Shown: positions 2,044-57,900, counted from the stretch's first letter. The stretch is DNA of 64,000 bases from an uncultured Candidatus Saccharibacteria bacterium (GCA_964638585.1 CAZXAN010000002.1:9291-73290); one strand, 5' to 3'. Numbers and translations: made by a program. The notes: generated from the sequence alone by a model not told the origin.

Positions 2044-3624
2044 TCACGTTTTCTTAGCTTTATTGGCTGGTTTTGTCTGTTCTGTCATACCGAGTGCAGA
2101 GCGGATGTGTCTACGCGCGAGAGAAGTTTTGGCTATCTCTAGCCACTTGGTTGACGGGTGTGCAGAGTCTCTCCTGATTATCTCTACAACTTCTCCGTTG
2201 CCGAGTGCAGTGTCAAACGAGACGAGCTTGCCATTGACCTTTGCGCCTTGCAGGTGGTCACCAAGGTCACTGTGTATCGCGTATGCAAAGTCTATCGGCG
2301 TAGACGCCGCTGGCAGGTCTATCACATCTCCCTTTGGAGTAAAGACGAATACGCGATGAGAAAAGAAGTCCTCCTTCAATCCCTCTACAAACTCTTGAGA
2401 GCCAGCGATGTCGGTGTGCGCTTCAGCGAGCTCAGCGAGCCACTCTGGCGCCTTGAGCGCTCCCTCTACTCTGTTTCCATTTTCTTTTTTCGTAAATCTC
2501 ATTAGCGATGGGATAAGTGAGCGCACCCAAGTGAAGGAGAGCGATGAAAACCTGCTTTTCTGTTCGCTTTTTTCAAGATTTTCTATACCTTTACCAAGCT
2601 GTTTATACGACATATGCGATGCGATACCGAACTGCGCATCGCGATGCATATCTTCTGTTCGTATCTGTATCTCTACGATGCCTGCGTTTGGTGTCACGAC
2701 TGTTGTGTGTAGAGACTGATAACCGTTTGGCTTGGGGAAGGCGATATAGTCTTTAAATTCTCCAGGTAGTGGTTTGTAAAGCGCGTGTACTATGCCAAGC
2801 GCCGCGTAACAATCTTCAACTCGCGGTACTATAAGGCGTAGTGCGGCGATATCGTGAATTAGCGTTATGTCATCATTTTTTCTCTGCAATTTCTGATGCA
2901 AGCTCCACAGCCCCTTCATACGAATAGAAGTTTTAAATTCTTTGATATCTTTTCGCATCAGCTCGCGCTTTATGTCCTTTTGTATTTGGATCAAACCGTC
3001 TTCGGTCTCTTTTGTCTTCAGTTTGCGCACCTCGGCTGTGTGAACAGCTGCGTCTGGGTCTACATAAGGGAACGCGAGATCCTCTAGCGCACGCTTCATA
3101 CGCCCCATACCAAGACGGTCTGCGATTGGCGCGTATATCTCAAGAGTTTCTAGCGCGATGCGCTTACGCTTGTGTTCTGGCACGTGCTCAAGTGTCTGCA
3201 TATTGTGTTCGCGGTCTGCGAGCTTCACTATTAGCACACGGATGTCGCTCGCTGTCGCAACAAGCAAGCGACGCAAGCTCTCTGCGTGGCGTTCTGCACC
3301 GCGATATTTGTGAGTGCCGAGCTTGGTAACTCCGTCAACGATAAAGAGAAGTTCTTTGCCGAATTCTTTTTCCATTTCTTCACGAGACACGCGACCATCC
3401 TCAACAGCGTCATGGAGTAGACCGGCGGCAATAGTCGTCGCGTCCATGCCGTATTCAGCGAGCGTCTTGGCTGTTGCAGCTGGGTGTATGAAGTACGGTT
3501 CGCCAGAGTAGCGCTTCTGCCCATCGTGAGCCTTTTTAGAAAATTCGTACGCCTTTTCTACTACTGCTACATCTCCCTCAGTCGGGCTAACCATCTCGGC
3601 GACAATATCCTTGACTGGTGTCAT
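2044..3624 (-). CDS. rel: Short bifunctional (p)ppGpp synthetase/hydrolase Rel (HD + synthetase + TGS, no ACT domain)
   Basis: HD hydrolase block HDAVEDG, synthetase block (DIAALRLIV, YQSLHTTV), TGS-like VFVFTPKGDVIDLP; only 526 aa. Confidence 0.85.
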   Translation of the reverse strand: MTPVKDIVAEMVSPTEGDVAVVEKAYEFSKKAHDGQKRYSGEPYFIHPAATAKTLAEYGMDATTIAAGLLHDAVEDGRVSREEMEKEFGKELLFIVDGVTKLGTHKYRGAERHAESLRRLLVATASDIRVLIVKLADREHNMQTLEHVPEHKRKRIALETLEIYAPIADRLGMGRMKRALEDLAFPYVDPDAAVHTAEVRKLKTKETEDGLIQIQKDIKRELMRKDIKEFKTSIRMKGLWSLHQKLQRKNDDITLIHDIAALRLIVPRVEDCYAALGIVHALYKPLPGEFKDYIAFPKPNGYQSLHTTVVTPNAGIVEIQIRTEDMHRDAQFGIASHMSYKQLGKGIENLEKSEQKSRFSSLSFTWVRSLIPSLMRFTKKENGNRVEGALKAPEWLAELAEAHTDIAGSQEFVEGLKEDFFSHRVFVFTPKGDVIDLPAASTPIDFAYAIHSDLGDHLQGAKVNGKLVSFDTALGNGEVVEIIRRDSAHPSTKWLEIAKTSLARRHIRSALGMTEQTKPANKAKKT

Positions 3625-10290: not shown

Positions 10291-10872
10291 GGTCCATTTC
10301 CTCCCCCCGCCACGGTATATAATGTACCGAATGGCAGACAAGAGGAAATACGCCGACAGGAGAGAAGAACTCATTCGAGCGGTTGCAAAGCGCAGAAGAA
10401 AGATTAAGAGCATGGCGATTGAGTACAAAGGTGGCAAATGCCAAATTTGTGGCTACTCAAAATATCAAGGAGCGTTTGATCTTCACCACATTGATCCGAA
10501 ACAAAAAGACTTTGGTATCGGCGATAAGGGTTACACCCGATCGTGGGAGAGGGTTAAAGCGGAACTCGATAAATGCATCTTGGTTTGTGCGAATTGTCAT
10601 CGCGAGGTTGAGGCCGGCGTTACGCAGCTTCCTAAAGAGATTTAGGTTGAAAAATGAGGTGAATTCGGGGAAACCCTAACAGCGGAAATGCTGTGGGCAA
10701 TCCCGAGCCAAGCCACGACGACAGGCGTTGTGGAAGGTGTAGAGACTATCCCGCAAGGGAGTACCCTTCGAAGCTTTATGCGAAGTAGGGGAAGCGCCTC
10801 ACACCCTCGATCTGCGAAAGCAGGTACGGGTGATGATATAGTCCATCCCTCTAGGTAACTTAAGGAGCGATG
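10291..10872 (+). mobile_element. Group I intron (putative) with internal HNH ORF
   Basis: U at 5' splice site, G at 3' end; GNRA hairpins GGGGAAACCC, CAGCGGAAATGCTG, CCCGCAAGGG; P7-like GACTA/TAGTC in GTAGAGACTAT...GATATAGTCC resembling R/S elements. Confidence 0.55.
10331..10645 (+). CDS. HNH homing-endonuclease-like protein encoded inside the intron
   Basis: CQICGY...LHHIDP...CANCHR HNH/zinc-finger pattern; track ORF 10241 start is an in-frame upstream extension across the tRNA exon. Confidence 0.6.
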   Translation: MADKRKYADRREELIRAVAKRRRKIKSMAIEYKGGKCQICGYSKYQGAFDLHHIDPKQKDFGIGDKGYTRSWERVKAELDKCILVCANCHREVEAGVTQLPKEI

Positions 10873-18714: not shown

Positions 18715-18951
18715 ATGTATATAAAAGTATTCGTCACGCCAGATGCGAAGCGGGAGAAGGTTGATGAGGAAGGTGACACCTTACGGATTTCTGTGCGGGA
18801 GCCTGCACTTCAGAACTGCGCGAATACGCGCGTAAGGGAAATCGTTGCGAATCGGCTAGGAGTAGAAGTAGGTAAGGTGCGGATACTGACAGGACATCGC
18901 TCACGGGTTAAGATGATAAGTGTTACTATCAAGCGAACGAGTGAAGAATGA
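18715..18951 (+). CDS. DUF167 (YggU) family small protein
   Basis: MYIKVFVTPDAKREKV...LRISVREPALQNCANT...LTGHRSRVK; start moved to ATG 18715; TATAAT at 18698-18703. Confidence 0.55.
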   Translation: MYIKVFVTPDAKREKVDEEGDTLRISVREPALQNCANTRVREIVANRLGVEVGKVRILTGHRSRVKMISVTIKRTSEE

Positions 18952-24703: not shown

Positions 24704-25852
24704 TTGTTATACTCACTGTATGACTGCCTACTGCTCCTGCTAACTGCTATGTCTATTCTCATTTTTATTGTCGTTATAGTGGCGCTCATTATTGTCCACG
24801 AGCTTGGGCATTTTATCGTAGCTAAATGGTCGGGGATGCGCGTGGACGAATTCGGACTCGGATATCCACCGCGTGCGATGATCATCGGTGAGAAAAACGG
24901 CACTCTCTACACTCTTAACTGGTTGCCATTTGGAGGCTTTGTGAAGATATTTGGCGAAAATAGTGAGCAGGAAGCAGTAGCAGACAGCAGATCATTCACA
25001 TCAAGGCCAAGAATCCAGCAGGCGCTGGTGCTTGTCGCTGGGGTTGCGATGAATCTCTTATTTGCGTACGTACTGATCACAGGCGCGCTAATCGCCGGCA
25101 CACCGCGAGCGCTTTCTGAGAGCGAAGTCGCTACTGCAAAAAATGTAGAGCTTGCTGTCGCAAATGTTCTATCTGGCTCGCCAGCCGCGCTCGCAGGGGT
25201 TGTGCCGGGCGACATAATCCTCTCGTCAGAAGACGGACACTATTTATATGATGGGACAGATCCTGCAGAGTTCACAAAGTTTGTCGCAAATGGAGCCGGC
25301 AACACAACTATCGCACTCTCTGTACGGCACGCGAGCGGAGAAGAAGAATTACTTTTTGCACGGCCAGTAGCTGGTGTAATCGCCTCAGACAAGTCGCGCC
25401 CTGCGCTCGGCGTTGAAGTCGCGACAATCGGCGTAGTGCCTATTTCGTTTGGCTCGGCGATTGTTGAAGGCGCACGGCTCACATGGGGTGCGACTGTCTT
25501 GACTGCGCAAGGCCTCTGGCACTTCTTCTACGGCGTCTTCACCTTTTCAGCCGATCTCTCGCAAGTCGCCGGGCCGGTCGGCATCGCTGGTGCTGTCGGT
25601 TCGGCGTCTATGCAAGGCTTTGGTTATCTATTTTCAATAATGGCTATTATTTCTATCAATCTCGCGCTCATTAATTTAATTCCTATTCCTGCGCTTGATG
25701 GTGGCCGTCTTCTTTTTGTAATTATAGAAAGCATCATTCGCAGACCGATTAAAGCGAGTGTCGCGCAGGCGGTCAACGGCGTCGGCTTCGTCTTCTTAAT
25801 TCTTCTAATGCTCGTCGTCACAGCCAACGACATCTTCAAAATCGTCGGCTAG
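24704..25852 (+). CDS. rseP: RseP-type site-2 zinc metalloprotease with PDZ domain
   Basis: HELGHF, PDZ GSPAALAGVVPGDIIL, C-terminal LDGG. Confidence 0.8.
   Translation: MLYSLYDCLLLLLTAMSILIFIVVIVALIIVHELGHFIVAKWSGMRVDEFGLGYPPRAMIIGEKNGTLYTLNWLPFGGFVKIFGENSEQEAVADSRSFTSRPRIQQALVLVAGVAMNLLFAYVLITGALIAGTPRALSESEVATAKNVELAVANVLSGSPAALAGVVPGDIILSSEDGHYLYDGTDPAEFTKFVANGAGNTTIALSVRHASGEEELLFARPVAGVIASDKSRPALGVEVATIGVVPISFGSAIVEGARLTWGATVLTAQGLWHFFYGVFTFSADLSQVAGPVGIAGAVGSASMQGFGYLFSIMAIISINLALINLIPIPALDGGRLLFVIIESIIRRPIKASVAQAVNGVGFVFLILLMLVVTANDIFKIVG
25811..25852 (+). repeat. Copy A of 42-bp direct repeat (3' end of rseP)
   Basis: CTCGTCGTCACAGCCAACGACATCTTCAAAATCGTCGGCTAG versus copy B at 26207-26248; 35/42 identical. 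Confidence 0.6.
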
Positions 25853-26292
25853 TGGGGAAGTGTGATTTTCGTCTCGATTGCGAGAGCTTCTATCTGTCTG
25901 TCGTGTCGAGCGAGATGTATAGAACCCATGCTATTTTCATTTCGTAAATCCTGGATCGCCCCCGAGAGACCGTCAACTGCGTTCTCGATTCGTCCGACCG
26001 CAAGTGCCACAGAGTCTAGTTTATCGCTGACTTCACCAATCTCGACTCGCACACCGACAATCTCCTCCCCAAGTTCTTTCTTTGTAGAAAAAGCTTTAAG
26101 GTCCGCTTTTGTAGCGAAGACACTTTTAAGTTTAGTTATGTCCGTATCGGTAATCATGCGAGGAATTGTATCACAAGTAATGCTAAGGGGTATTCCGTAT
26201 TCACAGCTCGTCGTCACCGCCCACGACATCTTTAAAATTGTTGGGTAAATGCTTTTGCGCTTCGCGCGGGAGGGGCATATACTGTGAAGCAT
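25849..26292 (-). CDS. Hypothetical coiled-coil protein inserted between rseP and proS
   Basis: 147-aa ORF with protein-like composition, bracketed by the duplicated rseP 3' end. Confidence 0.35.
   Translation of the reverse strand: MLHSICPSRAKRKSIYPTILKMSWAVTTSCEYGIPLSITCDTIPRMITDTDITKLKSVFATKADLKAFSTKKELGEEIVGVRVEIGEVSDKLDSVALAVGRIENAVDGLSGAIQDLRNENSMGSIHLARHDRQIEALAIETKITLPH
26207..26248 (+). repeat. Copy B of 42-bp direct repeat (relic rseP 3' end)
   Basis: CTCGTCGTCACCGCCCACGACATCTTTAAAATTGTTGGGTAA; encodes ...LVVTAHDIFKIVG* versus rseP ...LVVTANDIFKIVG*. Confidence 0.6.
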
Positions 26293-38775: not shown

Positions 38776-39828
38776 ATGGAAAAGAAATCTTCAAATTCAA
38801 GTCTTCATCGGGCAGCCAAGGTGAAAAATGATGAGTTTTACACGCAACTCGCGGACATTGAAAGGGAGCTGAAACACTATAAAAATCAGTTTCTGGGGAA
38901 GGTCATTTATTGCAATTGCGATGACCCATTTGAGAGCAATTTTTTTAAATATTTTGCTGCCAACTTTAACGCATTAGGACTGAAAAGACTTATTACCACA
39001 AGTTACATAAAGTCGCCAATTGCTGGCGGGCAGTTGCCACTATTTGAAGTAGAAGGACTAAAGCCATTAGGTAAAGAGCCGTTTAAGATTGAAATTAATG
39101 AAGTACCAGATTCTGATGAAGATGGTGCAATAAATCTTGATGACGTTAAGTTTTTACTAAGGCACAACAAGAACACCGCTACACCGCTACGCGGCACCGG
39201 CGATTTCCGAAGCGAAGAATGTGTAGAACTTCTCAAGGAAGCAGATATAGTTTGCACCAATCCTCCATTTTCTCTTTTTCGTGAGTATGTAGCTCAACTC
39301 GTTGAATATGGGAAGAAATTTTTGATTATAGGAAACGACAATGCGAGAAAGTATCAAGATATTTTTAAACTAGTTCAAAAAAATAAACTCTGGCCTGGCT
39401 ATGGGAGAGTAAAAGAATTTATGCAACCAGATAAAACTATCAAGAAATTTGGTAATGTCGGATGGTTTACGAATCTTGATGTGGCAAAAAGAGATGAGTC
39501 TTTGACTCTGTATAAAAAATACAACTCAAAAGAGTTTCTCAAATATGATAATTACGATGCAATAGAAGTATCAAAGGTCTCAGAGATTCCGATGGACTAT
39601 AAGGGCGTAATGGGCGTTCCAATAACTTTTCTTGATAAATATAATCCAAATCAATTTGAAATTTTGGGAATGTCAGACAATAGAGATCCCAATTACAAGT
39701 TTCGAACCAAGTTGTATACTCAAAAGGATTCACCAGAGTATAACGACTTAAATAGGGGCACAGTGATAAAAATCAAGGGAGAACTTAAATCCACGTTTAC
39801 TCGTTTGTTAATCAAAGCTAAAAAATAA
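38776..39828 (+). CDS. N6-adenine DNA methyltransferase (EcoRI-methylase-like family)
   Basis: N-terminal KNDEFYTQ and catalytic NPPF motif. Confidence 0.65.
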   Translation: MEKKSSNSSLHRAAKVKNDEFYTQLADIERELKHYKNQFLGKVIYCNCDDPFESNFFKYFAANFNALGLKRLITTSYIKSPIAGGQLPLFEVEGLKPLGKEPFKIEINEVPDSDEDGAINLDDVKFLLRHNKNTATPLRGTGDFRSEECVELLKEADIVCTNPPFSLFREYVAQLVEYGKKFLIIGNDNARKYQDIFKLVQKNKLWPGYGRVKEFMQPDKTIKKFGNVGWFTNLDVAKRDESLTLYKKYNSKEFLKYDNYDAIEVSKVSEIPMDYKGVMGVPITFLDKYNPNQFEILGMSDNRDPNYKFRTKLYTQKDSPEYNDLNRGTVIKIKGELKSTFTRLLIKAKK

Positions 39829-39829
39829 T

Positions 39830-40936
39830 ATGAAAATTGAATTGCAAAAAATTTCGATTCGCGATGTGATGACCGGCTATAAAGACAGTCACGAAGAAGG
39901 AGTGGTCGCTTACGACGGCAAACTCGATGTCCGTCCGAAATACCAACGTGAGTTTGTCTACAAAGACAAACAACGCGATGCAGTTCTTGATACCGTCAAG
40001 AAGGGATTCCCGCTCAACGTGATGTACTGGATGGTGCGCGATGATGGCGGCTACGAGGTACTCGATGGTCAGCAACGTACCATCAGCCTTGGCCAGTATG
40101 TCAGCGGCGACTTCTCGCTCAATGATCGCTTTTTCCATAATCTAACCAAGGAAGAGCAAGAGCAGATACTGGCTTATGAATTGATGATTTATTTCTGCGA
40201 GGGTACGGACAAGGAGCGACTGGACTGGTTTAAGACCATCAATATCGCGGGTGAAAAACTAACGGATCAAGAATTGCGAAATGCCGTTTATACCGGCCCG
40301 TGGCTTTCTGATGCGAAACTCAAATTCAGCAAATCAAATTGCGCCGCATATCTTCTTGCAAACGATGGAGGGCAGTTGGTAAGCGGTTCGCTCATTCGAC
40401 AGGAATATTTGGAAACTGCACTTTCGTGGATAAACAACGATGAGATTGCTGACTACATGGCGAAGCATCAGCACGACAAAGATGCTAACGCATTGTGGGA
40501 GTATTTTCAAAATGTCATTGCATGGGTGCGTAAGGTATTTCCGAGCTACCGCAAAGAAATGGCGAGTGTAAATTGGGGCGAGTTGTACAATCAGTTCAAA
40601 GATAAGGAACTGGACGCCACGAAACTAGAGGTCGAAGTTGCAAAGTTGATGCAGGACGAAGACGTGACGAAAAAGTCCGGTATTTATCCATATCTCTTAA
40701 CAGGAGAAGAAAAACATCTTTCTATCCGTGCGTTTAACGATAAGATGAAACGCGAGGCATATGAGAGACAGAAAGGTATTTGCACTCACTGCAAAGGTGA
40801 AGACAAGAAAAAGAAATGGGAAATAGAAGAAATGGAAGCCGATCATATAAAGCCTTGGCATGAGGGTGGAAAAACTACCGCTGGGAATTGCCAGATGTTG
40901 TGCAAACAGGATAATCGCACTAAGTCTGGGAAATAA
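39830..40936 (+). CDS. DUF262 (ParB-like, DGQQR) + C-terminal HNH/DUF1524 nuclease (GmrSD-like)
   Basis: DGQQRTISL motif; C-terminal CTHCKG...ADHIKPWHEGGKTTAGNCQMLCKQDN HNH; starts 2 nt after MTase stop. Confidence 0.65.
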   Translation: MKIELQKISIRDVMTGYKDSHEEGVVAYDGKLDVRPKYQREFVYKDKQRDAVLDTVKKGFPLNVMYWMVRDDGGYEVLDGQQRTISLGQYVSGDFSLNDRFFHNLTKEEQEQILAYELMIYFCEGTDKERLDWFKTINIAGEKLTDQELRNAVYTGPWLSDAKLKFSKSNCAAYLLANDGGQLVSGSLIRQEYLETALSWINNDEIADYMAKHQHDKDANALWEYFQNVIAWVRKVFPSYRKEMASVNWGELYNQFKDKELDATKLEVEVAKLMQDEDVTKKSGIYPYLLTGEEKHLSIRAFNDKMKREAYERQKGICTHCKGEDKKKKWEIEEMEADHIKPWHEGGKTTAGNCQMLCKQDNRTKSGK

Positions 40937-40988
40937 AACAGTGAAAGGCTGACTACGATCCAGCATCGATCCATATGGATAAATCGAA

Positions 40989-41456
40989 ATGAAAAACCTA
41001 GCATATCAAGACATAATTAAGGAAAATATCACCATTATCTTAACGTTTGTATTTTCTCGCGAGAGGCTGCAGGAGATATCAAACGATAGGACCTTGGGAG
41101 AGTGGAAATTTCTAGGGGACGCAGTTAGCGAGGCCACTTTGGCCAGAGCAGAACGTGCCGCACTGGAGTTGGGGATTTTATTTCGCCTACTGGACGACAA
41201 GTATAAAATACCGAACTACTTTAAAGATAAAAAGACAATTGTTTTTGGTTTAATCTCTGGAGGATCGGAGTCAGGTCAACATCTGTCTGCTAGAGAAATG
41301 TCCAACAAAATCGTGCATGCACAAGATTTGAAATGGGATACGAGATCATCGAAAGAACCTAAGCTAATTTGCATATCCAACCAACCAGACAGATGGCAAT
41401 CAGCAGAAATCGATGTTTTAAAGCTTGCTCTCCTTTGTAGTCAGCTCATGCGTTGA
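40989..41456 (+). CDS. Hypothetical protein (no recognisable domain)
   Basis: 155 aa between GmrSD-like gene and mrr. Confidence 0.35.
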   Translation: MKNLAYQDIIKENITIILTFVFSRERLQEISNDRTLGEWKFLGDAVSEATLARAERAALELGILFRLLDDKYKIPNYFKDKKTIVFGLISGGSESGQHLSAREMSNKIVHAQDLKWDTRSSKEPKLICISNQPDRWQSAEIDVLKLALLCSQLMR

Positions 41457-41602
41457 AATTGTATGGTGGGAAATGGGTACAGAAACTATTGTTTTGCGTT
41501 TGCGTGATCTGATAATTCAGCAAAGTGGGTGCTGATGGACGAGTACACTCAATCATTATTTCAATCATTGCATTGAGGACCTAAAGATGATCTAATCATC
41601 GA

Positions 41603-42493
41603 ATGGAGAAGCAGATACCTAAATTTCAAGAGACATTTTTGCCAATTTTAAAAGTCCTTGATAAGGAAGGAACTATTCGAACGAGTGAGTTGAAGAAAAA
41701 AGTTCGAGATGGATTTTATGGAGATCTTCCGAAAGAGTTACTTGAGGAGACCACAAAGAATGGAGACATCTTAATACTTAATCGTATCGCCTGGGGTAAG
41801 GCATATCTGAAGCAGGGAGGAATGATTGAGCAGCCAGAACGAGCACTCGTTCGGATCACTGCTAAAGGGCAAAAGATATTAAAACAAGGTGGACTCTCAC
41901 TAAAAGAATTGTTGCATGACGAGGACTTTCTGGCACGCAGACTAGAAGGCAAAAAAACAAGAGAGGAAGAAGACACTATTGATGCGAGCGCTTCGCCCCA
42001 GGATCTAATTGACGCTGGCTTCAAAGCAGTCGAGACTTCAGCAAAAACTGATTTATTATCTAGATTGAAAGGCATTGATCCCTTCTATTTTCAGAAGGTT
42101 ATTTTACTGCTATTGGAAAAAATGGGTTACGGGGATTTCATCGAGACGCCAAAGTCAGGGGACGGAGGGATTGACGGCGTGATTAGTCAGGATAAACTCG
42201 GGCTTGAGAAAATATATATCCAGGCGAAAAGATATACTGAAAATAAGGTAAGAGAGGGCGAGATTCGTAATTTTATTGGAGCGATGAGTCGCGATGCGAA
42301 TAAGGGGATTTTTGTTACTACCTCTACGTTTGATGAAAAGGCTGTTCAGAAGGCGCGCGATGCTGGGCAGAAAATAGTTCTAGTCGATGGCTCTATGTTG
42401 GTTGATCTAATGTATAAATATGGAATCGGGGTGCAGGTACGAAGTACCTATGAGATTAAACAAGTTGATGATGATTTTTTTGAAGAAGAATAA
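41603..42493 (+). CDS. mrr: Mrr-family restriction endonuclease (Mrr_N winged helix + Mrr_cat)
   Basis: GDGGIDGV...YIQAKRY catalytic block, N-terminal wHTH. Confidence 0.7.
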   Translation: MEKQIPKFQETFLPILKVLDKEGTIRTSELKKKVRDGFYGDLPKELLEETTKNGDILILNRIAWGKAYLKQGGMIEQPERALVRITAKGQKILKQGGLSLKELLHDEDFLARRLEGKKTREEEDTIDASASPQDLIDAGFKAVETSAKTDLLSRLKGIDPFYFQKVILLLLEKMGYGDFIETPKSGDGGIDGVISQDKLGLEKIYIQAKRYTENKVREGEIRNFIGAMSRDANKGIFVTTSTFDEKAVQKARDAGQKIVLVDGSMLVDLMYKYGIGVQVRSTYEIKQVDDDFFEEE

Positions 42494-42557
42494 CAACTTC
42501 AGGTTTTAGCAACGGGAACCCTTGCTCACTCGCGAATGCTAGAGGCATTGTAGTTGT

Positions 42558-42637
42558 GCGGTATAATGGGGGTGTTACCAGTTAATGCGAAAGCTATGCA
42601 TAATCCACACAAGGGAGGGCTCTTTTTCGGGGCGGTT
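42558..42637 (+). repeat. Copy 1 of ~80-bp direct repeat (promoter-like TATAAT + ATG CAT AAT CCA... gene start), upstream of fic
   Basis: GCGGTATAATGGGGGTGTTACCAGTTAATGCGAAAGCTATGCATAATCCACACAAGGGAGGGCTCTTTTTCGGGGCGGT; encodes truncated MHNPHKGGLFFGAV... (21 aa then stop). Confidence 0.6.
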
Positions 42638-42739
42638 ATACACAGGTGGCTTACAAGTTAGTTGACAGGAGTGCTTCTAGGATATACTATATCGATAGTT
42701 AGTTTATCTACTAAGCATCACCATAAACTAACTCGAAAT

Positions 42740-43861
42740 ATGAATATAGAGATAGGCAAAACAGTGAAGCAACGAGAAGGCTTTTCAGCCTTTGTTCCGA
42801 ACCCTTTTCCACCAGAGGGTCTCTTTGACCTACCACAGGACATTCTCATCAAGGCGGCCGAAGCCGATCGTTTAGTCGGCAAACTAGATGGCATTACACA
42901 CACGCTCCCAGACGTAGATTTTTTCCTGCATATGTTCGTTGCAAAGGATGCAGAGTCCTCAGCCCAAATCGAGGGTACGCGGGCGACTATGATGGATGCT
43001 CTAAAGAAGGGTGCCGGTCTCGTACCAACTGCGACTGACGCCGACGATATTCTCTACTATATACAAGCGTTGAATTACGGAACAAAACGACTCAAGACTT
43101 TGCCACTATCCTCCAGACTCATACGGGAAGTACACGCTAAGCTTATGGTGGGGGCTCGAGCCACGCATTTCGCAAATCCTGGCGAATTCAGGACGTCGCC
43201 AAACTGGATTGGCGGCACGGCGCCAAACAACGCGCTCTATGTACCGCCGCCCGCGCCTGAGATGCATCGCGCACTCAATGATTTTGAAAAATTTCTTCAT
43301 GACGAGAAAAGTGTGCTGCCTCTGATTCATATCGCGCTTGCGCATGCCCAATTTGAGACGATCCATCCGTTTTTGGACGGTAATGGCCGCACAGGCCGTC
43401 TCATCGTTACGATGCTTCTTTGTCATCGCGGCTTACTTGAGCGGCCGGTATTATTTCTTTCATCCTATTTTAGACGACATCAGAAGGTCTACTACACTCG
43501 GCTGAATGGTTATCATGACGGTGATGTTCACGCGTGGCTGGATTTCTTTCTGGATGGCGTTATTGATACGGCAAACGAATCTATTGAGATATCAAAAAAG
43601 ATACGCAAGATTCGTGATACTGACATGGCAAAAATTCAGGCTCTCGCAAAAAGGGAGTCGGAGAGTGGCGTGGTTGTACTACCGCGTCTTTTCCGTGAAC
43701 CTGTCGTAACAGCCACGACGGTGATGAAGTGGACAAGGTTTTCACGAGCAGGGGCTCTCAAATTACTCGATCGCTTTGTCGCGCTTGGGATTCTTGAATC
43801 CGTTCAGTCGCAAGGGCAGGGGCGAAGTTTTGTATATCGACGTTATATTGATGTGTTTTAG
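42740..43861 (+). CDS. fic: Fic/Doc family protein
   Basis: Fic motif HPFLDGNGRTGRL; start at ATG 42740. Confidence 0.8.
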   Translation: MNIEIGKTVKQREGFSAFVPNPFPPEGLFDLPQDILIKAAEADRLVGKLDGITHTLPDVDFFLHMFVAKDAESSAQIEGTRATMMDALKKGAGLVPTATDADDILYYIQALNYGTKRLKTLPLSSRLIREVHAKLMVGARATHFANPGEFRTSPNWIGGTAPNNALYVPPPAPEMHRALNDFEKFLHDEKSVLPLIHIALAHAQFETIHPFLDGNGRTGRLIVTMLLCHRGLLERPVLFLSSYFRRHQKVYYTRLNGYHDGDVHAWLDFFLDGVIDTANESIEISKKIRKIRDTDMAKIQALAKRESESGVVVLPRLFREPVVTATTVMKWTRFSRAGALKLLDRFVALGILESVQSQGQGRSFVYRRYIDVF

Positions 43862-43904
43862 GACTACCATGGCTCACTTGCGAAGTCTAAAGATTGGTAG
43901 TCGC

Positions 43905-43983
43905 GCGGTATAATAGGGGTGTTACCAAATAACGATAAAGCTATGCATAATCCACACAAGGGAGGGCTCTTTTTCGGGGCGGT
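43905..43983 (+). repeat. Copy 2 of ~80-bp direct repeat; here it is the functional promoter and 5' end of gene 43919-44200
   Basis: GCGGTATAATAGGGGTGTTACCAAATAACGATAAAGCTATGCATAATCCACACAAGGGAGGGCTCTTTTTCGGGGCGGT; about 90 percent identical to copy 1. Confidence 0.6.
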
Positions 43984-45522: not shown

Positions 45523-46260
45523 ATGAACCAGAAATTTATTGATCGGCCGTTTGTAGTACCAGCTTTAATCATAGGGGCTTTCTTTGTCGTGGCGATGGGG
45601 CTCTTGGGGTCTAATATCGCGAATCGTGGTAGCGACAGCACAATCGTCGTTACGGGTTCTGTTATCTCGGACGTGCGCTCAGATAAGGTGACATGGCAGA
45701 TAGGAGTGCAGAGGACAGCATATGTCGGTGGGACATCATTTGCCTATGAGGCAGTGTCGCGCGACGCTAATATCGTTAAGGCATATTTTGAAGACCAGAA
45801 GTTAGCCTCGTCTAGCATCACAGCGTCTGTTATCTCTACTGACGAGAATTATAAGCAGAACCAGAACGACCCTACAACCTTTATTGTTAGAGAGACGCTG
45901 ACGATACAGACAACAGATGTTGATAAGATAGACCAGCTCTCGCGTGGTCTCGGAGTAGTCACAGCTAAGATATCTCCAGACACGCGCCTAGTGCCGTATC
46001 AGCCAGAATATTACATATCGGCACTACCGGGGCTACGCGTCTCTCTCCTTAGTCAGGCGATTAAAGATGCACGGGCGCGTGCAGTCTCTATAGCCTCAAG
46101 CGGGAGCACTAAGGTTGGCGCGCTTAAGAGCGCATCATCGGGCGTGGTGCAGGTCTTGGCGCCCAACTCTACCAACGTTGAGGACTACGGCTCCTATGAC
46201 ACTTCTACAATCCAGAAGCAGGTGATGGTCTCTATCCGCGCGACCTTTTACGTCAAATAG
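45523..46260 (+). CDS. SIMPL-domain (DUF541) protein with N-terminal TM
   Basis: 245 aa, beta-rich; architecture of periplasmic SIMPL-domain proteins. Confidence 0.5.
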   Translation: MNQKFIDRPFVVPALIIGAFFVVAMGLLGSNIANRGSDSTIVVTGSVISDVRSDKVTWQIGVQRTAYVGGTSFAYEAVSRDANIVKAYFEDQKLASSSITASVISTDENYKQNQNDPTTFIVRETLTIQTTDVDKIDQLSRGLGVVTAKISPDTRLVPYQPEYYISALPGLRVSLLSQAIKDARARAVSIASSGSTKVGALKSASSGVVQVLAPNSTNVEDYGSYDTSTIQKQVMVSIRATFYVK

Positions 46261-46324
46261 AGATTCCACAAGGTCGGGCCTTTAAGTTTTATGCATGAGC
46301 AAGGGTAGCCCTTGCTCCAAACAA

Positions 46325-46365: not shown

Positions 46366-46785
46366 TCATACTCCTTTGCCGTTGGCGAGACAGGGCAACC
46401 CTGCCAAGTAATCTTCAGGACTCATGATGAGGGTAACCCATGTTCTGCGAACGATCGCCACAGGAGTCAGTGCTCTTCTGTCTATTGAGATGATAAGTCT
46501 TTCTATCGGACCAAGCGCGAACACCGTTTCCGATTTAGGAATAGCCTTTTTCTCAAAGGTGAAGTGTATGATTTTCCCATCCGTTGTTTCGCCTGCGGCG
46601 AAATAATCTCCGCAGGCTTTCCAGCTACCTCCCGTTTTTATTTCCTCCATAACGCTCGTTCTAAGCGCGATAATAGGATATATATCCTCGGCACTTCGTG
46701 CCGAGCCTGACATAGTTAACGTAAACCAAAGTAGTAAACCGACAATGACGTACCTCATAGCATCTCCCTCTGGTTGATGATTCAA
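46366..46785 (-). CDS. Hypothetical secreted protein (signal peptide)
   Basis: MRYVIVGLLLWFTLTMSGSA signal-like N-terminus. Confidence 0.35.
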   Translation of the reverse strand: MNHQPEGDAMRYVIVGLLLWFTLTMSGSARSAEDIYPIIALRTSVMEEIKTGGSWKACGDYFAAGETTDGKIIHFTFEKKAIPKSETVFALGPIERLIISIDRRALTPVAIVRRTWVTLIMSPEDYLAGLPCLANGKGV

Positions 46786-53143: not shown

Positions 53144-54202
53144 ATGGATATCTTCACTGTCGCACTAATTGTTCTAGGATTGATTCTAGTGCAGGGCATT
53201 GGTCTATACTTTATATTCCGGCGCCGCGAAGCGACGCCGGCAGAAGATGGGGCAGGGATGGTTCTCCTCCAGCAACAACTACAGAATCTGGAAAAAACTC
53301 TTGATGCAAGAGTTTCAGAGTCTTCAAAAGCGATGCAGGAAAATTCGCACAGGCAGTTTTCAGAGTCTGCGCGTCTAATAAAAGAGATTACGCAAGAAGT
53401 AACGAGTGTGAAAGAGATTGGTCGACAGACCCAGGGCTTCGCCGAACAGTTACAGTCTCTACAAGATTTGCTTAAGAACCCTAAGCAGAGAGGTATTCTC
53501 GGCGAATATTATTTAGAGACTGTCTTGAAAAATGTAATGTCGCCCGAAGATTATCAGATCCAGTATCCATTTAAGAATGGTGAGATAGTAGACGCAGTTA
53601 TTTTCATAAATAAAAAGATAGTGCCCGTAGATTCTAAATTCTCACTCGATAATTACAACAGGTTTGTGAGCACGCAGATAGGGAGCGCAGAGAGGGCTGT
53701 GGCAGAGAAGGCGTTTGTGAATGATCTTAAAATGCGTATCCAAGAAACCGCGAAATATATCCGGCCTGAAGAGAACACGATGGACTTTGCTTTTATGTTT
53801 ATCCCTTCAGAAGGCATTTATTATGATCTTCTTACCAATCAGGTTGGCGCTGGAGAAGATGAAAATCTTATACAAAGAGCAGCAGGGAAGTGGAAGGTGA
53901 TAATAGTATCGCCGACATCTTTTCTCGCATATCTACAAACAGTCATGCAGGGGCTTAAAGCTTTGAAAATAGAAGAAAAAGCAGTAGAGATACAGCAGAG
54001 GGTAGGGGAGCTGGGGAAGCATGTACAGGCCTATGAGACTTTCTACAAGAAGCTGGGCGTCTCGCTCGGCACTTCTATCTCGCACTACAACGCGGGCTAT
54101 AAAGAATTGGGTAAAATAGACAAAGACGTGTATAGAATCTCCGAGTCTAAAATAGGTATTGAGCCCGAATTATTGGACAAGCCGCTAGCATCTGAAGCAT
54201 GA
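53144..54202 (+). CDS. rmuC: DNA recombination protein RmuC family
   Basis: N-terminal TM, long coiled coil, C-terminal FAFMFIPSEGIYYDL block. Confidence 0.6.
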   Translation: MDIFTVALIVLGLILVQGIGLYFIFRRREATPAEDGAGMVLLQQQLQNLEKTLDARVSESSKAMQENSHRQFSESARLIKEITQEVTSVKEIGRQTQGFAEQLQSLQDLLKNPKQRGILGEYYLETVLKNVMSPEDYQIQYPFKNGEIVDAVIFINKKIVPVDSKFSLDNYNRFVSTQIGSAERAVAEKAFVNDLKMRIQETAKYIRPEENTMDFAFMFIPSEGIYYDLLTNQVGAGEDENLIQRAAGKWKVIIVSPTSFLAYLQTVMQGLKALKIEEKAVEIQQRVGELGKHVQAYETFYKKLGVSLGTSISHYNAGYKELGKIDKDVYRISESKIGIEPELLDKPLASEA

Positions 54203-54217
54203 TGCTAGAATATATAT

Positions 54218-54997
54218 ATGCCAGAAGCAACTAATCAAAATCGCTGGAGTAAACTTAGTACCTTCCTTACCATAATTAGCTTGATTTTGGGTATTTTTGG
54301 AATTTCGTATACTGCTTTAATACTTGCCACGTGGGGTATATCTGTTTTTGGGCTTGAGGTCAATACCTATTTTTATGATTGGCCAGTTGTATACGCTCAT
54401 CAATTTTCTCTTACAATAGGTCCGCTTCTGTATCTGTACATAATCTTTGGATTTAAAAAAATCAAAAGAAATCTATGGTTTTCATTCACGATCTTGTTGT
54501 TAGCAATCATTTTTATTGCAGTTGGTCCATTTGAGCTCGCAGACAGATATCGTGAAAATATTCCGCACTATCAAGTTCCCCCGACATTACAAACATTTGA
54601 AACAGAGCTAAAAAATGGTGTCTACAGTAATGAAACAAATGCTACAGCCAGATGCTTGGATATATTACAATCTATATCTTCGGAAGTGAATTCAGCAAGT
54701 GTTCGATTTACTAATTCTTGCATCTACTTGATTGCGATCCACTTTGACGATCCGATGATGTGCCGCGAGAATATTTACCCTCACTTTATAAATACCGAAC
54801 CCTATGTTTTTGATGAGTTATGCCTAGAGGCTTACGGTATTACTAGAAAATCTGAAGCCAAATGTCTAACAATTCCAGATTATAAAGTTCAGTCCAGTAA
54901 AGATAGCTATGTGTATGGAACACATGGGCAATACCCCAGAGACTACTGCATTCAAATGTCCCATAGCAACCAATCGTCAAGGTTTGATAACATATAA
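54218..54997 (+). CDS. Hypothetical membrane protein (4 TM + Cys-rich C-terminal domain), AT-rich cassette 1
   Basis: 259 aa; lower GC than neighbours; bounded by rmuC 3'-end repeat copies. Confidence 0.35.
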   Translation: MPEATNQNRWSKLSTFLTIISLILGIFGISYTALILATWGISVFGLEVNTYFYDWPVVYAHQFSLTIGPLLYLYIIFGFKKIKRNLWFSFTILLLAIIFIAVGPFELADRYRENIPHYQVPPTLQTFETELKNGVYSNETNATARCLDILQSISSEVNSASVRFTNSCIYLIAIHFDDPMMCRENIYPHFINTEPYVFDELCLEAYGITRKSEAKCLTIPDYKVQSSKDSYVYGTHGQYPRDYCIQMSHSNQSSRFDNI

Positions 54998-55006
54998 GAA
55001 CGGCGT

Positions 55007-55027
55007 GAGCAAGGGCTACCCTTGCTA
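55007..55027. repeat. Hairpin GAGCAAGGG-cta-CCCTTGCTA, inverse copy of 46297-46317
   Basis: 9-bp stem; sits at the cassette boundary just before rmuC-repeat copy 2. Confidence 0.45.
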
Positions 55028-55035
55028 CAAACTCT

Positions 55036-55156
55036 GGCTACAAAGAGCTCGGCAAGATAGATAAAGACGTATATAGAATCTCCGAGTCCAAAATCGGTTC
55101 CGCCAGCTGGCGGAGAACCGGAGTTGCTTGATAAGCCCACAACAGAACTTGAATAG
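55036..55156 (+). repeat. Copy 2 of rmuC 3'-terminal segment (degenerate), containing a 16-bp perfect palindrome TCCGCCAGCTGGCGGA at 55099-55114
   Basis: GGCTACAAAGAGCTCGGCAAGATAGATAAAGACGTATATAGAATCTCCGAGTCCAAAATCGG... about 85 percent identical to 54093-54160 of rmuC. Confidence 0.6.
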
Positions 55157-55206
55157 GTATCCACAGAAGCAGTTGCAATCTGTACACGTACGTGTACAAT
55201 GGAAGC

Positions 55207-55476
55207 ATGAATACCATATTTACCAAAGTGCCCAAGACGCTCGGAGTGAGCGGCTTTCGAGCTGATCTCGCTCGTAATCTTGCGAGGGCTAAAAAGAGTC
55301 CGCTCATCATATCTGACAGGAAGGGCGGCGAGAGCTACGTCGTTCTCGGCGCAGACGCCTATAACGAGCTTATGGAACTCTGGGAGGACGAACAGGCGGG
55401 ACGTACACTCGCTCGACTCATAAAAGAAAATAAAGGTAAGAAGCTTATACCTTGGGAAAAGGTGCGAGGATATTAA
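55207..55476 (+). CDS. Phd/YefM-family antitoxin
   Basis: MNTIFTKVPKTLGVSGFRADLARNLARAKKSPLIISDRKGGESYVVLGADAYNELME pattern. Confidence 0.6.
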   Translation: MNTIFTKVPKTLGVSGFRADLARNLARAKKSPLIISDRKGGESYVVLGADAYNELMELWEDEQAGRTLARLIKENKGKKLIPWEKVRGY

Positions 55477-55488
55477 TTCATCTCAAAA

Positions 55489-55746
55489 ATGGCTCGCATC
55501 GTACTCACGCCGCCTGCCGAACGAGAGTACAAGCGCTTGCCGAGAGACGTGCAACAAATGGTTCAGGAGTTGTTTGATGGTCACTTTCGAATCGATCCAC
55601 TTGCTATTCAATTTAGAGCTAGGAAAGTGCAGGTACCTTTCACTGGGTATCGCCTGCGACTGAGAGACTACCGTGTACTTTTTGAATTCGAAGGAGAAGT
55701 TATTCTCGTGTATCGAATCAGACATCGCAAAGATTCATATAAATAG
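55489..55746 (+). CDS. RelE/ParE-family toxin
   Basis: 85 aa; ...YRLRLRDYRVLFEFEGEVILVYRIRHRKDSYK typical RelE/ParE C-terminus; 12-bp gap after antitoxin. Confidence 0.65.
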   Translation: MARIVLTPPAEREYKRLPRDVQQMVQELFDGHFRIDPLAIQFRARKVQVPFTGYRLRLRDYRVLFEFEGEVILVYRIRHRKDSYK

Positions 55747-55826
55747 ACAAAGACGTGTATAGAATTTCCGGCTCCAAAATCGACATCGAACCAGAATTGT
55801 TGGACAAACCAGCGACAGGGGAGTAA
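55741..55826 (+). repeat. Copy 3 of rmuC 3'-terminal segment
   Basis: AAATAGACAAAGACGTGTATAGAATTTCCGGCTCCAAAATCGACATCGAACCAGAATTGTTGGACAAACCAGCGACAGGGGAGTAA; encodes IDKDVYRISGSKIDIEPELLDKP... like RmuC C-terminus. Confidence 0.6.
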
Positions 55827-56097
55827 TGTTGCATTCGGCTCGGGCAACATGCTGTGGACGGAACGGGCCGACAGGCACGTTTGTGGGGTTCGATACCCTG
55901 CTCATGGGTGGATAGTGGTCTTTGTGGTGCATAGAATAGCTGGGAGACTGTGAAGTCTCGTTCCTGGACGGGATTGAGTCGCCGTTGAAATACCAGTCCC
56001 GCAGATGTATCAGTTGAAACTGCCCGAGCCGGCCCGTCATTTCGTAAGATTTGGCGGGCTTTCCTTTTTTATAGAACCGTGCTAGATTGTGGGGACT

Positions 56098-56415
56098 ATG
56101 GAAGTGGCCGTAATCAAGACCGGTGGGAAGCAGTATGTCGTCTCTAAGGGCGACACTATCGCTATAGAGAAGCTCCCAGGGGACTTGAAGAAGGGTGACA
56201 CGGTTGTATTTAACGAGGTGCTCCTCGTAGACAACGGCTCGGACACGACCATCGGCGCACCTATCATTAAGGGTGCAGAGGTCAAGGGCACTGTTGTTCT
56301 CGCCGGGCTGGGTAAGAAGGTGGAGGTGGTGAAGTACAAGCCGAAGAGTCGCTACTATAAGCGCAAAGGGCATCGACAACCACTCCTCAAAGTCAAGATA
56401 GATTCTATTAACTAG
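56098..56415 (+). CDS. rplU: 50S ribosomal protein L21
   Basis: MEVAVIKTGGKQYVVSKGDTI...; preceded by ~260-nt structured leader. Confidence 0.85.
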   Translation: MEVAVIKTGGKQYVVSKGDTIAIEKLPGDLKKGDTVVFNEVLLVDNGSDTTIGAPIIKGAEVKGTVVLAGLGKKVEVVKYKPKSRYYKRKGHRQPLLKVKIDSIN

Positions 56416-56504
56416 GCACTCTGACAGGCTTTAGGCGCTAGTTATTAAGTCACACAATTATTCAGTTTGTATCGCTAGTGCCTAGAGCCTAGCGCCTAAT
56501 ATCT
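56416..56504. repeat. MITE-like element with inverted GCCTA/TAGGC heptad arms around an AT-rich core
   Basis: CTAGGCACTCTGACAGGCTTTAGGCGCTAG...AT-rich...GCTAGTGCCTAGAGCCTAGCGCCTAA; same architecture at 58527-58610. Confidence 0.5.
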
Positions 56505-57856: not shown

Positions 57857-57860
57857 TTTT

Positions 57861-57897
57861 CGTAAGGTGTCACCTTGCTACAAGGTGACACCTTACG
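57861..57897. terminator. 16-bp perfect inverted repeat CGTAAGGTGTCACCTT-gctac-AAGGTGACACCTTACG between convergent helicase and recR
   Basis: Each arm is itself the AAGGTG-N-CACCTT palindrome seen at 44205 and 44703. Confidence 0.55.
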
Positions 57898-57900
57898 GAA

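Follow-up and report, generated by a model that had tools for sequence, protein, structure and literature searches.

The stretch of DNA examined here (the window) is 64,000 nucleotides long and belongs to an uncultured bacterium of the Parcubacteria/Paceibacterota (Kaiserbacteria-like), within the Candidate Phyla Radiation. The locus of interest lies between rmuC and rplU, the gene for ribosomal protein L21. In 5' to 3' order it comprises rmuC, a 259-aa open reading frame (ORF), a second rmuC end, a Phd/YefM-ParE toxin-antitoxin (TA) pair, a third rmuC end and rplU (Table 1). A first-pass annotation, made from the sequence alone, had described an insertion hotspot with serial acquisition, and in this it was right: the cargo varies, the newest unit lies beside rmuC and the oldest tail sits on the native leader. 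It had also taken the extra ends for decayed products of target duplication, generated by an active, uncharacterised cassette-insertion mechanism. The evidence points to a different origin: the extra rmuC ends are probably the left-over ends of earlier alleles, serially displaced by incoming DNA via general recombination.

Table 1. Features of the rmuC-rplU region, in window coordinates
Feature	Coordinates	Strand	Basis or remark
rmuC, functional gene, 352 aa	53144..54202	+	Pfam RmuC E=2e-50
Tail copy 1, current rmuC end (...KIDKDVYRISESKIGIEPELLDKPLASEA, stop)	54093..54202	+	alignments
TGCTAGAAT, extended -10-like motif	54203..54211	+	6 nt upstream of the membrane ORF ATG; read from sequence
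Cargo 1, 259-aa ORF, hydrophobic N-terminal segments	54218..54997	+	low GC, almost no relatives
Hairpin AGCAAGGG-CTA-CCCTTGCT, 21 nt	55008..55026 (55007..55027 over 21 nt)		directly 5' of copy 2
Tail copy 2, rmuC end read as displaced (..YNSGYKELGKIDKDVYRISESKIG, +13 nt, EPELLDKPTTELE, stop)	~55024..55156	+	nhmmer E=1e-16
Perfect palindrome TCCGCCAGCTGGCGGA, 16 nt	55099..55114		in copy 2
Putative TA promoter TTGCAA-16-TACAAT	55173..55200	+	overlaps 18-nt perfect palindrome TGTACACGTACGTGTACA (55181-55198)
Cargo 2a, Phd/YefM-family antitoxin, 89 aa	55207..55476	+	Pfam PF02604 E=1.8e-4
Cargo 2b, ParE/RelE-family toxin, 85 aa	55489..55746	+	Pfam PF05016 E=2.3e-8
Tail copy 3, read as oldest displaced end (IDKDVYRISGSKIDIEPELLDKPATGE, stop)	55741..55826	+	nhmmer E=4e-13
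Native rmuC-rplU leader	55827..56097	+	strongly conserved with L164
rplU (ribosomal protein L21), right-hand hotspot border	56098..56415	+	Pfam E=9e-33; start set at conserved MEVAVIK

The layout is not an assembly artefact, because six independently assembled contigs are 100% identical. At least six such contigs, from several samples, agree over 53144-56420 or over the portion that each covers, and the same layout occurs in a locus from another study (L003; related loci are cited here by such numbers). The flanking order of yqeY (minus strand), rmuC, rplU and a DEAD helicase is kept in most of the related loci fetched. A repeat search places the three tails in one three-copy family (54114-54183, 55055-55124 and 55741-55810), with 83% identity between copies 3 and 1 over 70 ungapped nt. 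A nucleotide profile of 160 rmuC tails matches 55030-55147 (E=1e-16) and 55741-55825 (E=4e-13), and by tblastn the identities are 96% over 23 aa and 81% over 27 aa. All three copies thus exist at or near the positions first assigned to them, except that copy 2 begins slightly further left, at about 55024. Two short exact 8-nt runs, AAAGACGT and TATAGAAT, are common to all of them. Copy 2 has a 1-nt indel near its start in addition to an inserted palindrome; copy 3, still contiguous with the native leader, has kept its frame open and ends in its own stop codon.

The way in which the tails differ is informative about their history. In the conserved block, orphan and functional tails compared by codon show synonymous differences at 79 of 106 differing codons, against a random expectation of 18% (p=1e-36). 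The excess is found in both extra copies of the window: 15 of the 17 codons that differ between copies 2 and 1 are synonymous (p=7e-10), as are seven of nine for copy 3 (p=1.6e-4). Because the differences are mainly synonymous, the tail copies diverged as working rmuC ends in separate lineages, which sits poorly with their earlier description as decayed. The last ~25 nt are unrelated between copies, and this, together with the synonymous differences, makes the tails different alleles and not duplicates of one target.

Each tail is in fact a two-part mosaic. The central block is more alike within genomes than between them (82% versus 73% identity, permutation p=0.0002), whereas the last ~25 nt are equally dissimilar in both comparisons (45% within, 46% between; p=0.63). 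The tips have their counterparts in other genomes: that of copy 1 is akin to the tips of the closest relatives, L081 and L001, and copy 2, the window itself aside, finds its best nucleotide match in the functional tail of L005, palindrome included. For copy 3 the correspondence extends beyond the stop codon. Its tip and the following TGTTGCATTCGGC equal the functional tail and downstream sequence of L110 and copy 1 of L095, and are found also in copy 2 of L164; the longer combination of tip, TGTTGCATTCGGCTCGGG and leader recurs as functional tail plus leader in L110/L095 and as copy 2 plus leader in L164. Since the mosaic has two parts and the tips are linked to downstream sequence, the moving unit is the tip plus cargo, with the breakpoint in the conserved block.

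Direct evidence of displacement comes from L161/L162, where the whole of rmuC has been replaced by a foreign allele. The RmuC encoded there is atypical of the clade, sharing 42% identity with that of the window and no more than 46% with any one of 164 others, whilst the neighbouring products are clade-typical: YqeY (85% identity to L008), L21 (88% to L110), the DEAD helicase (76% to the window) and YefM (92% to the window). Two orphan tails of the clade type remain downstream of the foreign rmuC, in an array that also holds an orphan rplU promoter with the first 11 codons of that gene. A reverse-transcriptase (RVT_1) gene lies near this xenologous rmuC, at positions 1-242 and ~1.1 kb from yqeY.

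The rmuC-rplU gap is a genuine gene-exchange hotspot. Across 80 genomes the distance from rmuC to rplU ranges from 13 to 2463 bp. Empty sites, for which the first-pass annotation had suggested looking, are common: in L004, L006, L013, L017, L087 and others, 41-49 bp separate the rmuC stop from the rplU start, and these hold just a compact rplU promoter (TTGYCT-17-TAGATT, then ATG). Occupied gaps contain one to seven small genes whose identity changes between genomes. Outside the window, orphan rmuC tails occur in six other genomes (L161/L162 counted as one): there are two extra tails each in L003, L095, L161/L162, L164 and L177, and one in L110. The left borders of the orphan tails fall in at least six registers, and no conserved motif follows the stop codons. 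The array of L003 resembles that of the window most directly, with tail, cargo, tail, yefM-parE and tail in succession, its first slot being filled by a hairpin-flanked IS200-like Y1_Tnp gene instead of the membrane ORF; its copies 1 and 3 have 44 identical nt in common. In L081, the closest relative (92% RmuC identity), a different small membrane ORF and a hairpin follow rmuC, and the contig stops where a second tail may begin.

Several further elements were noted in the gaps of relatives. IS200-like Y1_Tnp genes lie immediately 3' of the rmuC stop in L003 (7055-7920; Pfam E=4e-6) and L012 (7056-7830; E=1e-7); they are 46% identical to each other, and in both genomes direct copies of a ~25-nt hairpin (core AAGTC(A/T)GACT) stand on either side of the gene. 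A promoter-like stretch with a long hairpin unit of 46 nt (GCATATCAAA..ACCACGgtCGTGGT..TTTGATATGC) is repeated in L083 (2962-3040, 3672-3745), L095 (6121, 6644) and L164 (3412, 3855, 4533). It flanks yefM-parE in L083, where the window has rmuC tails, and stands on both sides of the cassette in L164; the promoter-hairpin unit of L083/L095 was not found in the window. Within the hotspot of L165, at 2915-3100, three copies of a 36-40-nt repeat (GTGGAGATACCCTATCTCCACAGGGATAGGGGATTAACAC) with ~30-nt spacers form a mini-CRISPR-like array.

The second cargo of the window is a small adjacent antitoxin and toxin of matching families, as a type II module requires, with 12 nt between the two genes. The first-pass assignment to yefM-relE/parE is borne out by Pfam: the ParE_toxin score (34.9 bits) exceeds the cut-off of 23, while the PhdYeFM score (21.6 bits) is below the curated cut-off of 29.8, although homologues of the antitoxin do carry PF02604. 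The 18-nt palindrome and promoter upstream of the pair are conserved in L003, L083, L161, L163 and L164, and the palindrome is likely to be the TA operator. The antitoxin has 75 homologue clusters at 65-95% identity, every one with a source name being of Parcubacteria type, and all seven of the homologues examined for context (74-93% identity) sit between rmuC and rplU. A more distant yefM-parE homologue (65% identity) at 4001-4530 of L178/L179 lies directly upstream of rpsL-rpsG-fusA, again beside a ribosomal-protein operon.

The extent of the TA cassette is constant, from ~15 nt upstream of the -35 element to the parE stop codon, which in the window falls within the first few nucleotides of copy 3. 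An identical parE-stop/ATAGA junction is found in the window and in L003, though the two stand apart in the rmuC tree (a single-gene tree with no support values, and a rough guide only) and close relatives are without the cassette. Two further registers of the parE/tail junction occur in L161 and L177; with three registers, such junctions arose at least three times. Judged from these comparisons, the TA pair is an old resident of the rmuC-rplU gap. The junction shared by the window and L003 fits an ordinary double crossover, in which the partial tail behind parE serves as the right-hand homology arm and the resident tail becomes an orphan.

The first cargo is of a different character. As first noted, the 259-aa gene is AT-rich: the GC content of 54001-55000 is 38.6%, against ~48% elsewhere in the window. 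It has no Pfam match, and a search of 5.8 billion proteins returned the protein itself alone. One relative, of 34% identity, lies in another gene context; being essentially an ORFan, the protein could not be traced to an origin through homologues. The TGCTAGAAT motif in front of it was not returned by a consensus promoter scan. It resembles the -10 motif TGCTAGATT of rplU in comparisons with rplU upstream regions, and is likely to be the promoter of a leaderless cargo gene.

The 21-nt hairpin that ends this unit recurs, reversed, at 46297-46317, in the gap between the called ORFs 45523-46260 and 46366-46785, and in L003, L095, L110, L161 and L164 most orphan tails not adjoining parE have a similar hairpin directly 5' of them. 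Dispersed hairpins in the window, most of them located at the ends of genes or close by, form two families: GAGCAAGGG-TAG/CTA-CCCTTGCTC, with two copies in opposite orientation, and GTAAGGTGACACCTTAC, at 18770, 44697 and 57858-57900. Both look like terminators or REP-like elements.

The 16-nt palindrome within copy 2 is indeed present, and only once in the window (0.02 occurrences expected), where it replaces ATC for a net gain of 13 nt. The suggestion that it is a recombinase or regulator site finds no support. In ~1.5 Mb it occurs four times: at 55099-55114 of the window, in the functional rmuC tail of L005 (7008-7023), in a MurF-like ORF of L095 (3682-3697) and in an unannotated stretch of L110 (243-258). 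It reads PPAGG in frame at all four sites, and in the L005 tail a 1-nt deletion upstream compensates for the insertion. The palindrome is missing from copies 1 and 3 and from every other orphan tail. A shared recombination site was therefore rejected, since no other tail copy has the palindrome and unrelated sequence does; it looks like a separate, very small insertion, tolerated in frame by coding sequence, and no feature of the repeats.

How the array may have been built can be outlined as follows. Related Parcubacteria would exchange small accessory units at rmuC-rplU through their general homologous-recombination machinery, acting probably on DNA taken up from outside, with competence as a plausible means of uptake. 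The incoming DNA would bring the final, conserved rmuC block (KELGKIDKDVYRI...), a variable tip and stop codon of its own, and at least one cargo gene. A first crossover would take place in rmuC or in the conserved tail block. On first entry the other end would be joined illegitimately, through homology-facilitated illegitimate recombination (HFIR) or a circular intermediate; on later entries the partial tail behind the cargo could act as a second homology arm in a double crossover. Because of the way the incoming end joins, the resident tail would be pushed downstream as an orphan instead of being destroyed, and rmuC would always have a complete end. No mobile-element enzyme is needed, because an intact gene end arrives with every incoming piece.

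Applied to the window, this scheme has three steps: (i) an original arrangement of copy 3 and leader, (ii) displacement of copy 3 by a unit consisting of the copy-2 tip and yefM-parE, (iii) the arrival of the copy-1 tip, membrane ORF and hairpin as one unit, which displaced copy 2. The direct repeats would also permit precise loss of cargo. The TA pair may resist such loss by addiction, a stabilising role that would explain its long residence.

Several observations weigh against displacement by general recombination. The rare codons TAT AGA occur in all three window copies, which requires either near kinship among the donors or a measure of gene conversion. The boundary between an orphan tail and the hairpin or parE stop before it is exact almost to the base, and the parE junction exists in three registers; a purely random illegitimate join predicts neither. 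Orphans of 50-130 nt persist in compact genomes with almost no spacer DNA. Breakpoints inside the window rmuC could not be mapped by a sliding-window nearest-neighbour approach, the relatives having 75-85% nucleotide identity, and all assemblies of the window organism are identical, so that no polymorphic population was found and no event was caught in progress. Finally, the scan for recombinases covers 64 kb of the genome, and an integrase or HUH enzyme may be encoded elsewhere. The TAT AGA codons, the exact junctions and the persistence of orphans can be explained by closely related donors, a degree of gene conversion, deletion bias and terminator hairpins. As for HFIR, behaviour like that of an anchor is seen in L161, and junctions such as TATAAATAGAC would permit 3-4 nt of microhomology.

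The alternative that survives best is site-specific integration with tandem accretion, and it is unlikely. A tyrosine or serine integrase encoded elsewhere would act on an att site in the rmuC tail; the elements would carry a replacement tail in attP, and integrase-less cassettes would be mobilised in trans, in the way of CIMEs (cis-mobilisable elements) and satellite islands. Elements that integrate into genes typically bring replacement 3' ends with synonymous differences, and the succession of functional end, cargo, partial end, cargo and partial end is the layout of attL/attR accretion. The 8-nt exact runs in all window copies and the constant ends of the TA cassette across several contexts suit it also, but the variable left borders of the orphan tails do not, and the cassettes are just 0.1-0.9 kb long. 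Pfam identifies no recombinase, integrase or transposase among 30 window ORFs, and no cassette was found to hold an integrase or recombinase; recR is present. To account for the orphan 5' end of rplU as well as the orphans at rseP and beside fic, several specificities would be needed, and the exchange of the rmuC body seen in L161 is beyond an att-site insertion, whereas anchored recombination with a diverged donor can achieve it. The active, uncharacterised insertion mechanism first proposed is not needed, given the lack of a recombinase among the window ORFs, the variable borders, the orphan rplU starts and the L161 gene swap.

The rseP and fic repeats on which that proposal had drawn (25810/26206 and 42550/43897) are themselves real. 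The terminal 42 nt of rseP occur in two copies (25810-25851 and 26206-26247; 86% identical) around a small minus-strand ORF, and six of the seven differing codons in the orphan are synonymous, the same displacement signature as at rmuC. The Fic/DOC gene (42662-43861) lies between direct repeats of ~115 nt (42520-42636 and 43868-43983), each of which consists of the promoter and first 13 codons of the downstream small membrane gene, with identical coding parts: a 5'-end counterpart of the rmuC case. Beside fic, a low-GC defence islet (38776-42493) encodes an EcoRI-like adenine methylase, a GmrSD_N+HNH endonuclease and an Mrr-type restriction endonuclease.

Two related proposals invoke single-stranded DNA. 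The broader one, which is quite improbable, is a dedicated cassette-mobilising activity in the clade, HUH/RAYT-like or some other single-strand enzyme encoded outside the window, that would build integron-like arrays without an integron integrase. Hairpins at cassette ends would be recognised and joined to the termini of conserved genes, and the exact hairpin/tail and parE-stop/tail junctions would be the footprint. The narrower one, a hairpin-guided cassette system of integron-like or IS200/RAYT type adding units of cargo and hairpin to gene ends, is very unlikely. The short hairpins directly 5' of most orphan tails not abutting parE, the hairpin-flanked Y1_Tnp genes right after rmuC in L003 and L012, the 46-nt unit flanking the TA cassette in L083 and L164, and the three terminus duplications within the window all lend it some colour. 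The window itself has no Y1_Tnp homologue by tblastn with the L003 and L012 proteins, however, and the hairpins belong to at least four unrelated families placed where terminators are expected. IS200/IS605 insertion produces no duplication, and the orphan tails are different alleles, not copies. Nor are the tails attC-like: they do not fold above shuffled controls (DNA folding z = 0.27 for copy 1 and 1.12 for copy 3), the value of -2.2 for copy 2 being due solely to the inserted palindrome, and attC-like folding was accordingly discarded as showing no signal against shuffled sequence. An integron was rejected in turn, there being no IntI beside the array (the upstream genes are rmuC and yqeY) and no attC-type hairpin in the repeats.

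The local-duplication model, in which slippage, template switching or a long target-site duplication copied the rmuC end and the copies then decayed neutrally, with gene conversion from time to time, is scarcely credible: the greater likeness of the central block within genomes, the 44 identical nt of L003 and the genome-specific TAT AGA codons accord with it, but it is strongly disfavoured by a synonymous share of 75% where neutral decay gives 18%, by distal tips that are unrelated within a genome, by the resemblance of the copy 3 tip (and, less clearly, the copy 2 tip) to functional tails of other genomes, and by the unrelated cargo of the two slots.

The leader that follows copy 3 ends in the rplU promoter, with its -10 motif at 56080-56088. 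It also contains a unit (55909-56072) that could be a candidate small RNA gene: a promoter-like site, TGGATA-17-TAGAAT (55909-55937), is followed by ~100 nt strongly conserved with L164 and by a GC stem (56032-56039/56052-56059) with a T-run after it, a terminator read by eye. Rfam gave no match for this unit, and no relevant RNA family in 54950-56110 or the whole window; a group I intron is present at 10600-10865 (RF00028, 62 bits).

At the rmuC locus, accessory genes (a TA pair, ORFans and small genes) turn over at a fixed site between essential genes in streamlined uncultured bacteria. Orphan gene ends with a signature of synonymous differences constitute a genome-wide searchable marker, which would map past recombination in metagenome-assembled genomes. 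For annotation there is a corresponding caution: direct gene-end repeats around cargo are not automatically att sites or target duplications.

Among known systems, chromosomal integrons likewise have single-gene cassettes between repeats of ~100 nt that are more alike within a genome, and a TA cassette with its own promoter may stabilise the array; they differ in that the rmuC locus has no adjacent IntI, yqeY being upstream of rmuC, and in that its repeats are coding gene ends without an attC-type fold. Phage 21 and e14 at icd, and ICESt1/3 at fda, insert into the 3' ends of protein genes, and the remark that a protein-coding 3' end is an unusual target has little weight. Such 3'-end integrative elements and CIMEs share with the rmuC locus a synonymously different replacement 3' end, attR-like partial ends and tandem arrays. 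The locus differs from them in having no integrase found, no fixed core, very small cargo, orphans at both hotspot borders and a whole-gene replacement in one relative. The TA pair matches type II Phd/YefM-ParE/RelE modules in gene order, sizes, Pfam families and a putative palindromic operator over the promoter; it differs in that its close homologues (74-93%, those examined) are all in one chromosomal gap.

Closer parallels lie in recombination-driven arrays. Arrays of orphan immunity genes at Vibrio type VI secretion system (T6SS) loci have been modelled by HFIR (Kirchberger et al. 2017, PMC5361080), transformation can yield repeat-bounded duplications by alternative pairing of donor fragments (Johnston et al. 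2013, PMC3784515), and Patescibacteria are reported to be competent and to retain genes for homologous recombination and competence (PMC12455944). One homologous anchor with a non-homologous join explains the variable left borders and the intact gene end, and a repeat-bearing donor fragment can pair in several ways. HFIR as described, by contrast, usually deletes recipient DNA and leaves no partial duplicate (as cited in PMC5361080), and microhomology at the window junctions is not demonstrable. The nearest likeness is to C-terminal displacement at rhs loci, where conserved cores and variable tips are decoupled and incoming tips push residents into arrays through homologous recombination and circular intermediates (Jackson et al. 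2009, PMC2935791). As in rhs, contact-dependent inhibition (CDI) and T6SS displacement, the rmuC locus has a conserved anchor block, a variable tip linked to downstream cargo, a series of orphaned ends of which the newest adjoins the gene, and no dedicated integrase among the window ORFs scanned. The differences are that RmuC is a housekeeping recombination protein and not a polymorphic toxin, that its tip of ~8 residues has no known function, that the window cargo (an ORFan and a TA pair) is unrelated to the anchor and does not consist of cognate immunity genes, that the rplU border also leaves orphans, and that the host is an ultra-small Patescibacterium. The rmuC locus is thus not a member of the rhs/CDI family, but it works like a terminal displacement array.

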